DNA of 64,000 bases. It comes from Escherichia coli (lineage in GTDB: Bacteria; Pseudomonadota; Gammaproteobacteria; Enterobacterales; Enterobacteriaceae). Shown here piece by piece: positions 33,707 to 43,124 of this stretch. Location of the stretch: the NCBI RefSeq assembly GCF_024700885.2, contig NZ_CP117016.1. One strand, 5' to 3'. The notes below the pieces were generated by a model that made no database searches, was not told the DNA's origin, and saw nothing but the letters and a program-made list of their open reading frames with translations. Every line of letters begins with the position of its first letter. Position 1 is the first letter of the stretch. A program made the position numbers and the translations under genes.

Positions 33707-36598
33707 ATGATTGGTACAACACCTTATCATGCGAAATATTTTGCGCATGAACTTTCCATTCTCCATTCAAACAATGGGGTGGACCGTCTGTCTCAATCGC
33801 TGTTTGATGCAAGCGTAGATCTAAATCCTCATCAAATTGAGGCGGCTCTTTTTGCTATTGAAAATCCGCTAAGCAAAGGTGTTGTGCTTGCCGATGAAGT
33901 TGGTTTAGGTAAAACCATTGAAGCGGGGTTAGTGCTTTGCCAGTTGTGGGCTGAAAGAAAACGTAAACTGTTGATCATTTGTCCTGCTTCACTGCGTCGC
34001 CAATGGGCGAGCGAGTTACAGGAAAAGTTCAATCTACCTTCTCAGGTGTTGGACGCGAAAACGTATAGCCAGCTTCAAAAAGAAGGGATCCATAATCCCT
34101 TAAATAATAAATCGATCACTATCATGTCATACCACTATGCTGCTCGGTTAGAAGAAAAATTGGTGGCTGAAATGTGGGATCTGGTTGTTATCGACGAAGC
34201 CCATAAACTGCGTAATGCTCATCGAGAAAGTAACAAAATGGGGCAAGCGTTAAAGCGTGCGCTTGATGGGCGGAAAAAATTACTACTGACCGCAACGCCT
34301 TTACAGAATTCGTTAATGGAACTGTATGGCATGTCGACGCTTATAGATGAACATACCTTCGGCGAAGTTAAAGCGTTCAGAAAGCAATATATGCAGGCAG
34401 ATAGCGATATTGCGGAGTTGAAGGGGCGATTGTCGCGTTTTATCAAACGAACTTTACGCAAGAATGTGCTGGAGTACATCAAGTATACAGAACGTAAAGC
34501 GATCACTATTCCTTTCTATCCGAGCGAACAGGAGCAGGATCTTTATGAACGCGTACAAAAATTGCTTGAACGTGAGGATAGCTATGCCTTACCAAAACGA
34601 CACCGGCATCTGACGGGGCTTATTCTCAGAAAGCTACTTTCCTCAAGTACGAAAGCTGTATTGAATAACTTGCAGATCCTTAAGAGTCGTTTAGAAAGGT
34701 TAAAGCTGGAAGGTATCGTTGAAGATGATATGAACATCATCCAACAGATCATAATGGATGACGATCTTGAAGATGACATCGTGGAAGATGCCGAATCAGT
34801 GGCTTTAGATACCGAGTGCAAAGTTGTCGATTCAGACGCGCTTCAGGCAGAAATCAATGAGCTGGAATCACTCATTGTCAAAGCAGAACAGATTGGCACT
34901 GATACCAAATCAAAAGAGTTGCTTTCTGGCCTGGAGCAAGGTTTTGCACAGCTTGCCGAAATGGGGGCTGCAAAAAAAGTCATCATCTTCACGGAGTCAA
35001 TGCGAACTCAACAGTATCTTGCACATTTTCTGGAAAACAATGGCTACCAGGGGAAAGTAGTAACCTTTAGTGGCACAAACAATACACCGCAGGCAAACAA
35101 GATCTACCAGCAATGGCGCGAGGAATATCAGGGATCTTCTCGTATTACCGGGTCGGCGCAAATTGATAAACGCTCGGCTTTGATCGACCACTTCAAAGAT
35201 CATGCTGAAATCATGATAGCTACAGAAGCTGCAGCTGAAGGGGTGAACCTGCAATTTTGTTCGCTACTGATCAATTACGATTTACCCTGGAACCCACAAC
35301 GCATTGAACAGCGTATTGGACGTTGTCACCGATACGGGCAAAAATTTGATGTGGTTGTTATTAACTTCCTCAATCAGCGAAACCAGGCCGATCAACGCGT
35401 TCTTGAACTCTTAACTGAAAAGTTCAGCCTGTTTGATGGCGTGTTTGGCGCATCGGATAGTGTGCTTGGCAGCATAGAAAATGGTGTGGATTTTGAAAAA
35501 AGGATCCAGTCAATTTATGAGTCATGCCGTACCCCCGAGGAGATAGAGCTGGCTTTTGAAAGGTTGCAGAAAGAGCTGGAAGATGAAATCAATCTCAAGA
35601 TGCAGAAGACGCAAGAACAGTTGCTTGAGCATTTTGATGAAGATATTCACGATATCCTTAAAATAAGGCTTGATGAAGCTCGGGAGCGTCTGGATAAAGT
35701 CGGTCGTTGGTTTTGGGCCGTGACCTGTCAGCAGCTCAAACAATATGCTGATTTTGATCATGAGCATCATCGTTTCACTTTACGTGAATCAGTAAATGAA
35801 CTGCCTGTCGGGCAGTACCAGCTGTTGCGCAAAGATGGTAGGCAAAATAGTGCGTTACAAATGCAGGATCACCACAGTTTTGCATATCGGATCAATCATC
35901 CGCTGGGTGAGTACGTCATTGAGGGGGCTAAGGTCCAGGAGACGAAAACAGCTGAAGTCATCTTCGATTACAGTAACCACACAACGAAAGTCTCGGTGGC
36001 TGAGCAGCTGAAAGGGCAATCAGGGTGGTTAACACTAAATTTGCTTACTGTTGATGCGTTTAACAGGCAGCAATTTTTAGTCTTTACCGCAAAAACTGAC
36101 AACGGACGTGTGGTAGATGGTGAAGCTTGTAAACGTCTGTTCAACTTGTCTGCAATAACCAACGAAAAGCTGGATAATTCGGCAAGTTCAGATGCATTAC
36201 CTGATGACTTGATCTTACTCAAGAACAGGCAAATTGACGCCAGACTTGCGGAAGTTCTGGAGCAGAACAATGTCCTTTTTGAAGCTGAAAGAGATAAGCT
36301 GGAAAAATGGGCTGAAGATATGATCTTTGCGGCGGAAGAAGCATTACGCGATACCAAAATGCAAATCAAGTCGTTAAAGCGAGAAGCCAGACTGGCGCAA
36401 TCGATGGAAGAACAAAAGCAAAACCAGGAAAAGCTGAAGCTACTGGAACGGCAGCAGAAACGCCAACGTATGGAAATTTTTGACATTGAAGATGAGATCG
36501 CTGACAAGCGGGATGAACTCATCAGTGCCCTTGAAGAGCGGATGAAGCAAAAAACGGATATCACCGAGCTTTTTTCCATCCGCTGGAAAGTTATTTAA
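33707..36598 (+). CDS. SNF2-family DEAH-box ATPase/helicase (963 aa) with C-terminal coiled-coil tail
   Basis: Walker A DEVGLGKT (33893-33916), motif II VVIDEAHKLRN (DEAH 34193-34204), motif III LLLTATPLQNS, helicase-C NLQFCSLLINYDLPWNPQRIEQRIGRCHRYGQ; AGAGAGA RBS. Confidence 0.85.
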   Translation: MIGTTPYHAKYFAHELSILHSNNGVDRLSQSLFDASVDLNPHQIEAALFAIENPLSKGVVLADEVGLGKTIEAGLVLCQLWAERKRKLLIICPASLRRQWASELQEKFNLPSQVLDAKTYSQLQKEGIHNPLNNKSITIMSYHYAARLEEKLVAEMWDLVVIDEAHKLRNAHRESNKMGQALKRALDGRKKLLLTATPLQNSLMELYGMSTLIDEHTFGEVKAFRKQYMQADSDIAELKGRLSRFIKRTLRKNVLEYIKYTERKAITIPFYPSEQEQDLYERVQKLLEREDSYALPKRHRHLTGLILRKLLSSSTKAVLNNLQILKSRLERLKLEGIVEDDMNIIQQIIMDDDLEDDIVEDAESVALDTECKVVDSDALQAEINELESLIVKAEQIGTDTKSKELLSGLEQGFAQLAEMGAAKKVIIFTESMRTQQYLAHFLENNGYQGKVVTFSGTNNTPQANKIYQQWREEYQGSSRITGSAQIDKRSALIDHFKDHAEIMIATEAAAEGVNLQFCSLLINYDLPWNPQRIEQRIGRCHRYGQKFDVVVINFLNQRNQADQRVLELLTEKFSLFDGVFGASDSVLGSIENGVDFEKRIQSIYESCRTPEEIELAFERLQKELEDEINLKMQKTQEQLLEHFDEDIHDILKIRLDEARERLDKVGRWFWAVTCQQLKQYADFDHEHHRFTLRESVNELPVGQYQLLRKDGRQNSALQMQDHHSFAYRINHPLGEYVIEGAKVQETKTAEVIFDYSNHTTKVSVAEQLKGQSGWLTLNLLTVDAFNRQQFLVFTAKTDNGRVVDGEACKRLFNLSAITNEKLDNSASSDALPDDLILLKNRQIDARLAEVLEQNNVLFEAERDKLEKWAEDMIFAAEEALRDTKMQIKSLKREARLAQSMEEQKQNQEKLKLLERQQKRQRMEIFDIEDEIADKRDELISALEERMKQKTDITELFSIRWKVI

Positions 36599-36603
36599 TT
36601 GAT

Positions 36604-42700: not shown

Positions 42701-43124
42701 TGATTCGACAAAAGGGCAGAAAATTATTGGTGATAAAAGTTTATATCTGCTAAGAAATGCGGATTCTAAAAATAAAGGCCTGGGCTTTGCTACTGCGGGT
42801 AATTTTTATCCGGATTTCTTATTGTGGTTAGTCGATGATAAAAGTGGTAAACAATGGCTAAGTCTTATTGATCCAAAAGGCATTCGCAATCTTAATCTTG
42901 ATGATCCGAAGTTCGGATTATATAAAGAAATTAAGAATCTTGAACATAAATTATCGGATGATAACTTATCATTAAGTGCATTTATTGTTTCTGAAACTTG
43001 TTATGTTGACTTAGTAAACGTACCTGACTCAAAAGAAAATCTGGAAGCCAGAAATGTGCTTTTTATTGAGGATACAGGCCCCGTTTATCTGGAGAAGTTA
43101 TTCAGTAAGATGGTTAGCGAGTAA
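39744..43124 (+). CDS. SF2 DExH helicase, Type III Res-like (1126 aa), with C-terminal PD-(D/E)xK-like motif
   Basis: Walker A NATGSGKT (40270-40293), motif II LIDEGHKG (40581-40592), motif VI QLFGRGVRLKG; C-terminal YPDFLLWLVDD...LSLIDPKG (about 42810-42878); ATG 3 bp after the MTase stop, GAGGAGG RBS. Confidence 0.75.
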   Translation: MAKKPTTGKAVKKETNSKLSFHKQLVLNRFMFHFFKDGTLQGLKNRLGEDRFEGIHEDGQSLFFHELSNYLFEVDLIDLDELRRYDLNIVQHWQQITEHRNRKEDTVLNMKYFQYLSLLFTEIYLDWYFNRKQQLLDGLNNELAAYNAENDKTAKDRANQFKSYILDDLNKLAYWNATGSGKTLLLHVNILQYLHYFQNGNTHHYPDKIILLTPDERLSKQHLDELENSGFTQYQLFDKSKSAPFKGTIEVIDINKLADEMGDKTVAVEAFEGNNLVLIDEGHKGTGSAAGAWMRRRDKLTRDGFAFEYSATFGQAVAGGNNVEAVETEIQKKKAKLLFETTALGKLNEEELAQIALTSEEKRDARIQATREVYGKSILFDYSYKFFYEDGYGKESLILNLNPEEDKKDERRYEYFTACLLSFYQQQYLFNKNKEKLSEFNIEKPLWVFVGNTVSGEDSDIHAVLRFLAWFLNHETQAKAWINDLIKNKARILDTKERNIFENRFTALMNAPEDIYADILSRLFNTTHSGQRLRVLNLIGSKGELALQVGEAEPFGLINIGDAPSLYKMCEEDTTFDYQRDDFAKSLFHTLNDKDSRLHILIGSRKFTEGWSSWRVSTMGLLNMGRGEGSQIIQLFGRGVRLKGRNYSLKRSTPGERPKGLHLEKLETLNVFGVRADYMATFKQYLEDEGITPSDEILELNFETRPNMPATRLKTLKLKDGYKDNQRLGFKRVYFPELYEVPADFQGKIKQPHIKLDLYPKLESIDTSRKGDNTPVNVRNEAKLDYKIISAFDFDRLYLAIQNYKLQRGWSNLRVDKQRLIDFCTGKTKIGNSWYTLLIPASELEIKQYADIAKQEDIMLRLLTDYTDRFYNTLKNAYEGQFYEVTQVKEDDPGMIKMYHFEIEETDDGLAYASRLEQLQQLVIDGEIGKAKSWSASGMVAITFDKHLYYPLLSIEKNANIPLKMRPAALGAPSEITFVQDLQSFVDSTKGQKIIGDKSLYLLRNADSKNKGLGFATAGNFYPDFLLWLVDDKSGKQWLSLIDPKGIRNLNLDDPKFGLYKEIKNLEHKLSDDNLSLSAFIVSETCYVDLVNVPDSKENLEARNVLFIEDTGPVYLEKLFSKMVSE

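Follow-up and report, generated by a model that had tools for sequence, protein, structure and literature searches.

A widespread operon that links an SNF2 ATPase to a giant Mod-like methyltransferase and a Res-like motor-nuclease: a candidate SNF2-assisted variant of Type III-like restriction-modification in Escherichia coli

The enzymes of Type III restriction-modification (RM) are two-component Mod2Res1 complexes. Their genes typically lie in the order mod-res with coupled stop and start codons. Mod (~530-650 amino acids (aa), 644 aa in EcoP15I) is a beta-class methyltransferase that has its target-recognition region (TRD) between motifs IV and I and exchanges this region between alleles, and Res (~970 aa) joins a superfamily 2 (SF2) motor to a PD-(D/E)xK nuclease at its C-terminus. 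Type III enzymes hemimethylate an asymmetric site and, with ATP, cleave DNA that has two unmethylated sites in inverse orientation. SNF2-type ATPases recur in modification-based defences, i.e. as DrmD in DISARM, ArmA in ARMADA, BrxHII in BREX type 3, and DpdE in Dpd. Here, we analysed a stretch of 64,000 nt from Escherichia coli (assembly GCF_024700885.2, contig NZ_CP117016.1; "the window"), in which three genes at positions 33707-43124 encode an SNF2 ATPase, a giant methyltransferase, and an SF2 ATPase with a nuclease domain. An initial interpretation of the DNA without database searches, the sequence-only reading, had proposed a novel defence operon. We conclude that the operon probably represents an SNF2-assisted form of Type III-like RM that is widespread and has so far escaped characterisation. 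The finding is real and less novel than first proposed, because existing catalogues list genes 2 and 3 as putative Type III components. The genes and their main parts are:

33707-36598, + strand: gene 1, SNF2-family ATPase, DrmD-like, 963 aa (Pfam, PADLOC, NCBIfam, motifs)
36619-39741, + strand: gene 2, beta-class DNA methyltransferase, predicted N6-adenine, Type III Mod-like, 1040 aa
37816-39258, + strand: exchangeable central cassette of gene 2, aa ~400-880 (allele comparison, GC minimum 0.32)
39744-43124, + strand: gene 3, SF2 ATPase with a C-terminal PD-(D/E)xK nuclease, "Res-like", 1126 aa
42630-43121, + strand: nuclease domain of gene 3, aa ~963-1126 (invariant residues, structural model)

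The three open reading frames (ORFs) on the + strand extend from 33707 to 36598 (963 aa, ATG), from 36604 to 39741 (1045 aa when read from a TTG), and from 39744 to 43124 (1126 aa, ATG). The layout of three co-directional, tightly spaced genes was recognised correctly from the sequence, as were the sizes of the first and third products. The methyltransferase has to be shortened from 1045 to 1040 aa, and the spacer between genes 1 and 2 widened from 6 to 20 bp, because translation starts at the first in-frame ATG (36619), which is the start in the RefSeq annotation and aligns with the N-termini of 30 homologues (consensus MSxK..L..KL). The ATG of gene 3, for which a GAGGAGG ribosome binding site had been described, is preceded by GGAGGAGG and follows the TAA of gene 2 after 2 nt and not after 3 bp. 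The block is AT-rich, as had been observed, with GC values of 0.32-0.45 versus 0.51-0.58 in the flanks and a minimum at 38-39 kb. Chance is not an issue, as each of the three proteins has homologues over its full length at E = 0.

Gene 2 has the motif order of beta-class methyltransferases that had been read from the sequence, i.e. DPPY (aa 495-498 in the 1040-aa numbering; 38101-38112) upstream of FFAGSGT (aa 778-784; 38950-38970), and DPP is invariant among the homologues aligned. The sole Pfam domain is N6_N4_Mtase (aa 489-812). The PADLOC model MTase_III PDLC03646 is matched end to end (2207 bits, 1-1057 of 1057), and of the 26 PADLOC families that it matches, the 25 listed are confined to MTase_III and MTase_II models plus a single orphan-methylase (oMTase) model. 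EcoP15I Mod (4zcf_A) was the best match among the sequences and structures of the Protein Data Bank (PDB), both by sequence (1.7e-39) and by fold (1.8e-23), the latter in a Foldseek search with an AlphaFold2 (AF2) model (predicted local distance difference test, pLDDT, 75.8). In contrast to Mod, gene 2 carries an extra ~390-aa N-terminal and ~150-aa C-terminal domain. These constant domains (aa 1-~390 and ~890-1040) are strongly conserved. No Pfam family matched them in any of 31 members, and Foldseek, with only methylases among the best 50 of 640 matches, revealed no identity for them.

The TRD of gene 2 (aa ~546-770) is hypervariable and lies between DPPY and FxGxG, inside the central cassette. 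Across phyla, it is 8-18% identical even when the flanks are 65-85% identical, and in two distant loci it is 48-55% identical though the flanks share only ~42%. This decoupling of TRD and flank identity, which is found in both directions, indicates exchange of TRDs across phyla. A corresponding difference exists within the species. In E. coli strain 190693, aa 1-380 and 900-1040 of gene 2 are ~100% identical to the window's gene, while aa 400-880 are 12-57% identical. Gene 1 of this strain shows 99.0% identity and gene 3 98.5%. The window's allele is present at full length in only 33 of 166 E. coli genomes, most of which match just the two ends of the gene. The allele of the 190693 type (locus L087, 4501-7605), with a different central cassette at the same locus, is the commoner one and occurs in ~130 genomes. 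On the basis of the near-identical ends, the divergent centre, and the near-identical genes 1 and 3, the constant ends look like a scaffold and the centre looks like an exchangeable specificity cassette, which coincides with the GC minimum of the block (0.32). A cassette swap with unchanged genes 1 and 3 is the usual signature of changing restriction specificity, and the hypervariable TRD and the swapped cassette suggest that gene 2 carries the specificity. In contrast to Type III RM, the operon has no phase-variation repeat; no simple-sequence repeat was found within or ahead of gene 2.

The ATPase motifs of gene 3 are ATGSGKT (40272-40292), DEGH (40581-40592), SAT, and a motif VI of the form QxFGRGxR (aa 634-641), and the Walker A motif, DEGH, SAT, and QxxGRxxR are invariant. 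The location of a nuclease motif inside the helicase gene, which had been predicted from the sequence, is corroborated by the AF2 model (pLDDT 84.5), in which a C-terminal alpha-beta-beta-beta-alpha-beta unit follows two RecA lobes (helix 973-987, strands 999-1004, 1025-1030, and 1037-1043, helix 1055-1070, strand 1075-1083). This unit carries the candidate catalytic residues E975, P1023-D1024 (42810-42815), and D1043-P-K1045 (42870-42878). Among 39 homologues, E975, P1023, and D1024 are invariant, position 1043 is D in 36 and E in 3, and position 1045 is K in 33 and H in 6. Gene 3 matches a single PADLOC model, REase_III PDLC03654, end to end (2326 bits, 7-1128 of 1154), whereas Pfam detected only ResIII, DEAD, and SWI2_SNF2 in the 39 members, weakly and confined to the first RecA lobe. 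The models for DUF1998/MZB, DrmA, and YprA did not match gene 3 (39 members in Pfam, gene 3 in PADLOC).

The gene 3 family comprises 2493 representative clusters (50% identity) at E <= 0.001 and 784 at E <= 1e-30. An older NCBI name for gene 3 homologues is "type III restriction endonuclease subunit R", and the three proteins are publicly named "SNF2-related protein", "site-specific DNA-methyltransferase", and "DEAD/DEAH box helicase family protein". About 200 plasmids, largely conjugative and enterobacterial, have a best gene 3 match of 60-80% identity, and most of them, judging from all 12 such matches listed, appear to hold only a 303-bp relic, which corresponds to aa 654-754 (72% identity) and is annotated as "DUF1158 domain-containing protein". 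The Thermus phage phiLo (18036-20477) encodes a protein with 35% identity to gene 3 over aa 9-879, whose annotation reads putative type III restriction endonuclease subunit R.

Gene 1 contains the full SNF2 motif set, in agreement with the sequence-only reading: DEVGLGKT, DEAH, TATPLQN, and QRIGRCHRYGQ, with motifs I, II, III, and VI invariant in 29 homologues. Pfam assigns SNF2-rel_dom and Helicase_C, and the helicase core covers aa ~30-680. The remainder (aa ~680-963) is a family-specific region beyond the DrmD models, with a charged helical stretch that resembles a coiled-coil by eye and a tail with F956 and W960, which are invariant in the 29 homologues. Pfam and motif inspection revealed no nuclease or other effector domain in the protein itself. 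The best families are DrmD models, i.e. PADLOC DrmD PDLC02619 (663 bits, aa 31-680 only) and the NCBIfam models DrmD_b NF038318 (666.7 bits, cut-off 950) and NF038317 (294 bits, cut-off 610). A secondary match was obtained with PADLOC HmaA PDLC00659 (194 bits), and the best PDB sequence match is RapA. With a mean identity of 55%, against 40% (gene 2) and 48% (gene 3), gene 1 is the slowest-evolving of the three. Matches of gene 1 below ~30% identity cover only the helicase core and stem from proteins on haloarchaeal and actinobacterial plasmids that are annotated as "helicase-related protein".

Relatives of gene 1 were also found in a second partnership. On plasmids, full-length relatives with 38-44% identity precede a Type III pair of ordinary size (Mod 527-568 aa, Res 909-953 aa) in the order SNF2-Mod-Res. 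The pairs on Roseomonas and Deinococcus plasmids correspond to PADLOC Mod PDLC03636 and Res PDLC03648, and a Ketogulonicigenium plasmid has the same layout as judged from annotation and gene size only. In contrast to the giant gene 2, these Mods have no extra domains, and both the Mod and the Res families differ from those of genes 2 and 3. The Res family is linked to canonical Res models, as the PDLC03648-type Res also weakly matches models that are hit by EcoPI Res. The plasmids likewise show embedded genes (AIPR, VapC, AAA). Because a second Mod/Res pair is found downstream of it on plasmids, the SNF2 clade of gene 1 is a recurrent companion of Type III-like modules. On a Thioclava plasmid (locus L089, 7980-11681), an SNF2 protein resembling that of gene 1 has an extended length of 1233 aa and is followed by neither a methylase nor a helicase; this locus may be a decayed or rearranged system.

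One genome per species was scanned, which yielded 80 loci distributed over Proteobacteria, Chlorobi, Chloroflexi, Planctomycetes, Acidobacteria, Nitrospirae, Spirochaetes, Verrucomicrobia, Firmicutes, and other groups. All three genes are present in 44 loci, and in 25 of the 33 loci with sufficiently long flanking DNA (76%). The order is gene 1-gene 2-gene 3 in 38 loci and gene 2-gene 3-gene 1 in six (Pasteurellaceae, Neisseriaceae), and start and stop codons frequently overlap at the junctions (-3 to -15 bp). In 64 of the 80 loci, genes 2 and 3 are direct neighbours or have nothing but embedded genes between them. Further gene families recur in at most 10 of the 80 loci. The SNF2 gene is thus a conserved partner across many phyla, and the same clade accompanies a second Type III family, two results that go beyond what had been deduced from the window.

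About 20 loci carry additional genes embedded among the three, including those for DUF1016/YhcG PD-(D/E)xK proteins (PADLOC candidate PDC-S02), MAD3/PtuA-like ABC ATPases, AIPR, and HigA-ImmA, as well as RhuM-like and Bro-N-like genes that were named by eye only, the RhuM-like gene being without a family match. The commonest is the DUF1016/YhcG-type gene (~340-390 aa, 10 loci), which lies between genes 2 and 3 in L008, L014, L029, L032, L067, and L078 and is also present in L004 and L025. Embedding of this kind has been reported in Hma, BREX, DISARM, and Type I systems (10.1101/2024.01.29.577857). The full system was found on 25 plasmids, one of which (19.7 kb) has Drt2 adjoining, and only one of 50,697 phage records, that of phiLo, contains a gene 3 homologue.

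From the observed genes, their motifs and folds, their conserved linkage, the exchange of the cassette, and the setting in mobile elements we infer, as the somewhat probable interpretation, a modification-dependent restriction system on a Type III-like chassis with the SNF2 ATPase as a dedicated third component. Gene 2 would read a short asymmetric site via its central cassette and methylate adenine (DPPY, N6), thereby marking host DNA, and its constant N- and C-terminal domains would be the scaffold that holds gene 3. Gene 3 would be the ATP-driven SF2 motor whose PD-(D/E)xK nuclease cuts DNA with unmethylated sites. Gene 1 would be a dsDNA-tracking SNF2 ATPase on the same DNA that joins distant site-bound complexes, strips proteins from invading DNA, or licenses the nuclease, i.e. 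the role that is presumed for DrmD in DISARM and ArmA in ARMADA. The marking and cutting steps are suggested by family, motif, and allele-exchange evidence, and the assistance by the SNF2 ATPase by the conserved linkage only. This is the best-supported reading. It is compatible with a gene 2 that is Mod-like by family, sequence, and fold, with ATPase and nuclease motifs that are intact in 39 diverse homologues of gene 3, with the conserved triad in which gene 1 is the most conserved member and its clade has a second Type III pair, and with a cassette swapped between E. coli strains and TRDs shuffled across phyla. It also fits the embedded defence genes, the neighbouring SBD-HNH gene (see below), and the carriage on islands and plasmids and hardly ever by phages.

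Type III RM is the nearest described kind of system. Three of the features tested were found here, i.e. the operon, Mod, and the architecture of Res, and two were not, i.e. homology to Res and the two-component make-up. Genes 2 and 3 are both filed under PADLOC Type III models, the third gene is conserved, and gene 3 is larger than Res. In the Type III system of Bibersteinia trehalosi, Mod activity needed Res (PMC4996451); no tie between that system and this family could be made.

Several observations weigh against the proposed mechanism, and one group concerns gene 3. Searches of PDB sequences with phmmer and, using the family profile, with hmmsearch gave no Res match for gene 3, and hhalign aligned the gene 3 family with EcoPI Res at a probability of 1.7% and over motifs II-III only. 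EcoPI Res matches five PADLOC REase_III models but not PDLC03654, the only one matched by gene 3. The fold of gene 3 matches SNF2, XPB, HsdR, and Res about equally, and the top Foldseek matches are Mot1, HsdR, CSB, Rad54, and RapA. Of the structural comparison with EcoP15I that had been suggested, only the part for Mod and gene 2 gave a specific result, as gene 3 has no preference for Res. Direct homology of gene 3 to EcoPI/EcoP15I Res was rejected, because the sequence, profile, and fold tests show generic SF2 similarity only. Gene 3 is a Type III Res by architecture, and descent from Res cannot be shown. It is a dsDNA-translocase-type SF2 motor with a nuclease, and, since specific Res homology was found neither by sequence nor by profile or fold, "Res-like" denotes form only; the earlier wording "as in Type III Res" holds in the architectural sense and fails as a statement of sequence relationship. 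Type III enzymology, i.e. Mod2Res1, two inverted sites, and ATP-triggered sliding, may not hold here. The literature searched contains no experiment showing methylation, restriction, or phage defence for any family member.

The second group concerns gene 1. It is missing in eight of the 33 well-flanked loci, one of which has a different SF2 helicase upstream, and the methylase-nuclease pair may work alone. Furthermore, genes 2 and 3 diverge together (rho 0.75), but the divergence of gene 1 does not track that of gene 3 (rho 0.36, p 0.09), and a swappable accessory therefore fits better than an obligate subunit. The main rival explanation is built on these findings: genes 2 and 3 would form a self-sufficient Type III-like pair, and gene 1 would be separable, i.e. 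an optional enhancer, a counter to the anti-restriction proteins of phages, or an independent one-gene defence. It is also compatible with the combination of the gene 1 clade with two unrelated Mod/Res families, and operon membership alone is weak evidence because other genes are often embedded. On the other hand, gene 1 is retained in many phyla, in two collinear arrangements and often with overlapping stop and start codons, and it is under stronger constraint than the methylase-nuclease pair. HmaA of Halomonas, a single-gene SNF2 defence, requires a fused nuclease-type domain (PMC11232893), whereas gene 1 has no nuclease or effector of its own, and the analogous SNF2 protein is essential in ARMADA (PMC12458937). 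We regard a separable gene 1 as unlikely on balance, yet as a serious contender.

The third point is the position of the operon on plasmids. On the Klebsiella IncF plasmid p19-10_01 (locus L086, 8760-18512), the leading region holds a helix-turn-helix (HTH)-SNF2-methylase-helicase operon, which is preceded by ssb, a ParB-like gene, psiB, and psiA and followed by DUF932 and DUF5983, and the same accessory families flank the CP4-like copy in E. coli. This position also fits a selfish or plasmid-establishment role, and the operon might mainly serve its carrier element instead of defending against phages, through addiction (post-segregational killing) or by helping conjugative plasmids and CP4-like islands to become established. 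RM systems behave as addiction modules. The operon is found beside ssb, psiB, and psiA on IncF plasmids of both Klebsiella and Salmonella, and in E. coli it adjoins a homologous set of DUF905, DUF932, antirestriction, and CbtA genes. Of the plasmids that match gene 3, 171 of 222 are typed as conjugative, most of them matching via the short relic only, as are 35 of the 85 that match gene 1. However, addiction and defence do not exclude each other, the turnover of TRDs and cassettes and the embedded defence genes are traits of defence systems, and many loci are chromosomal, in diverse phyla and with no plasmid genes nearby. A function mainly for the carrier element is therefore rather improbable.

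The assisted Type III-like system that we favour shares its three-part logic with two systems that combine an SNF2 protein, a methylase, and a second SF2 helicase. In class 1 DISARM, a DrmD-type SNF2 ATPase likewise comes first and is followed by an adenine methylase (predicted for gene 2) and an SF2 helicase. DISARM is also a modification-based defence that is carried on islands with embedded accessory genes (10.1101/2024.01.29.577857). ARMADA consists of the SNF2 protein ArmA, the PglX-like methylase ArmB (NPPW), the YprA-like helicase ArmC, and, in type II, ArmD (PMC12458937), and ARMADA II is located in a genomic island of E. coli, O-island 172 of EDL933, together with other defence systems (10.1101/2025.09.22.677730). 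The order SNF2-methylase-helicase mirrors drmD-drmMI-drmA and armA-armB-armC (PMC12458937), and DrmD models are the best families of gene 1, so that the operon could be a degenerate or minimal DISARM/ARMADA member that lost DrmB/DrmC or the YprA-type helicase. However, the methylase is of another class, beta-class Mod-like with DPPY and not PglX-like with NPPW, and did not match DrmMI; gene 3 differs from DrmA and the YprA-like ArmC and has its own fused nuclease; DrmA, DrmB (DUF1998), and DrmC (PLD) are absent, and no DUF1998 or PLD gene is nearby or recurrent in the 80 loci; and the DrmD match is restricted to the helicase core and stays below the NCBIfam cut-off. Such a remnant is thus very improbable. 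Class 1 DISARM was rejected, as it had been in the sequence-only reading, on the grounds that its core genes are missing and that the DrmD score does not reach the curated cut-off. ARMADA was rejected because the YprA-like helicase and the PglX-like methylase are absent, a distinction that is based on the published definition and not on the ArmA-C sequences.

Helicases and methylases are also combined in Hma and BREX-related systems, which often contain embedded defence genes. Hma consists of the helicase HmaA, the 5-methylcytosine (m5C) methylase HmaB, and the ATPase HmaC (PMC8565338). PADLOC-type prediction of an Hma system, which had been raised as a suggestion, could draw on the secondary HmaA match of gene 1. 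Hma was rejected and this identification is refuted, with next to no probability left, because the m5C methylase and the ATPase are required, gene 2 belongs to the N6/N4 beta class, and neither gene 2 nor gene 3 matches an Hma model. BREX-related systems centre on DUF499/BrxC-like ATPases (PMC12839542). BREX type 3 and BREX-related systems were rejected, as PglZ and BrxC/DUF499 are found neither in the locus annotation nor among the recurrent neighbours.

In E. coli, the region 33400-43200 is 100% identical in strain E24377A and others and is matched in 192 of 5426 complete genomes, in 149 of them at >=80% coverage. As had been noticed, the operon lies at the edge of a CP4-like island. According to the E24377A annotation, Ag43, DUF932, an antirestriction gene, YeeS, YeeU/CbtA, and DUF5983 lie upstream; a 100-aa ORF, an SBD-HNH endonuclease, and then nanS/M/C lie downstream. 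The reported absence of DUF1998 and PLD genes from the flanks was confirmed for 20 kb around the operon in the locus annotation. The leuX site is presumably common to this island and O-island 172 of EDL933, the ARMADA II island. The HNH nuclease that had been seen next to the operon (PADLOC HNH matches) is a Type IV-like "phosphorothioated DNA-binding restriction endonuclease", and together the operon and this gene are a small defence cluster. The original assignment to a defence-type, modification-based operon in a defence-island context is supported. The neighbouring features are:

33333-33352: terminator-like hairpin and T-run upstream of the operon leader, closing the CP4-like genes
33353-33706, + strand: AT-rich leader and presumed promoter region (inferred from the hairpin and the sequence)
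43171-43473, - strand: 100-aa acidic ORF, convergent on gene 3 (same-position copies in five loci)
43786-44658, - strand: SBD-HNH endonuclease gene

Copies of the 100-aa ORF with 53-62% identity follow gene 3 at the same position and in the same orientation in five loci, from Shewanella, Arsukibacterium, Pseudomonas, and two metagenome-assembled genomes. Pfam, NCBIfam, PADLOC, and PHROGs gave zero matches for it. Its membership is uncertain, and it may accompany the closest subclade as an accessory gene or as a hitch-hiker. The SBD-HNH gene is truncated in strain 190693. Beyond this gene, the identical region of E24377A is annotated in RefSeq with a fragment of an HNH pseudogene and with a nanS (sialate O-acetylesterase) that is truncated, where the window has an uninterrupted ORF of 335 aa (44870-45877).

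The hairpin divides the operon leader from the preceding CP4-like set and from an HTH pseudogene that is truncated (~33042-33155, E24377A annotation). A promoter scan predicted fewer sites than in shuffled sequence and gave no clear operon promoter. On Klebsiella plasmids, a C-protein-like HTH gene overlaps the start of gene 1; a copy of it, whether intact or as a relic, was found neither in the window nor in the other loci, and 33353-33706 contains no intact HTH controller gene. Other AT-rich patches of the window (GC 0.34-0.43, the rest being at ~0.5-0.58) are located at 12001-13000, 23001-24000, and 58001-60000.

The designation "novel" was too strong for genes 2 and 3, which match PDLC03646 and PDLC03654 end to end; the new element is the partnership with the SNF2 gene. 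The PADLOC and Pfam runs that had been proposed as a check for membership in a known system gave a divided answer, with genes 2 and 3 inside the Type III models and gene 1 outside them. No paper describing the SNF2 and Type III triad was found in the full-text literature searched, which leaves most subscription journals and REBASE outside. PADLOC-type tools would call the locus "RM type III" and pipelines would split off an orphan helicase, so that the third component would be missed. The SNF2 partnership merits a bench test because it is widespread, was found in no paper, and is workable in E. coli.

It is conceivable, although we hold this view only tentatively, that the operon represents a distinct class of ATP-dependent RM enzyme, in which two different SF2 motors, an SNF2 remodeller and a Res-like motor-nuclease unrelated to canonical Res, cooperate with a giant Mod scaffold and the SNF2 protein is essential for restriction and not for methylation. 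If true, the operon would be a minimal and tractable E. coli model for the role of SNF2 proteins in DISARM (DrmD), ARMADA (ArmA), and BREX type 3 (BrxHII). The question is testable here, as the partner components have readable functions, i.e. those of a site-specific methylase and a motor-nuclease, and natural E. coli alleles differ only in the specificity cassette. The family is large, with 784 clusters in many phyla, and is present on IncF plasmids of clinical Klebsiella and Salmonella and in ~3% of the complete E. coli genomes; for this reason, the operon may affect the host range of phages in therapy as well as plasmid traffic.

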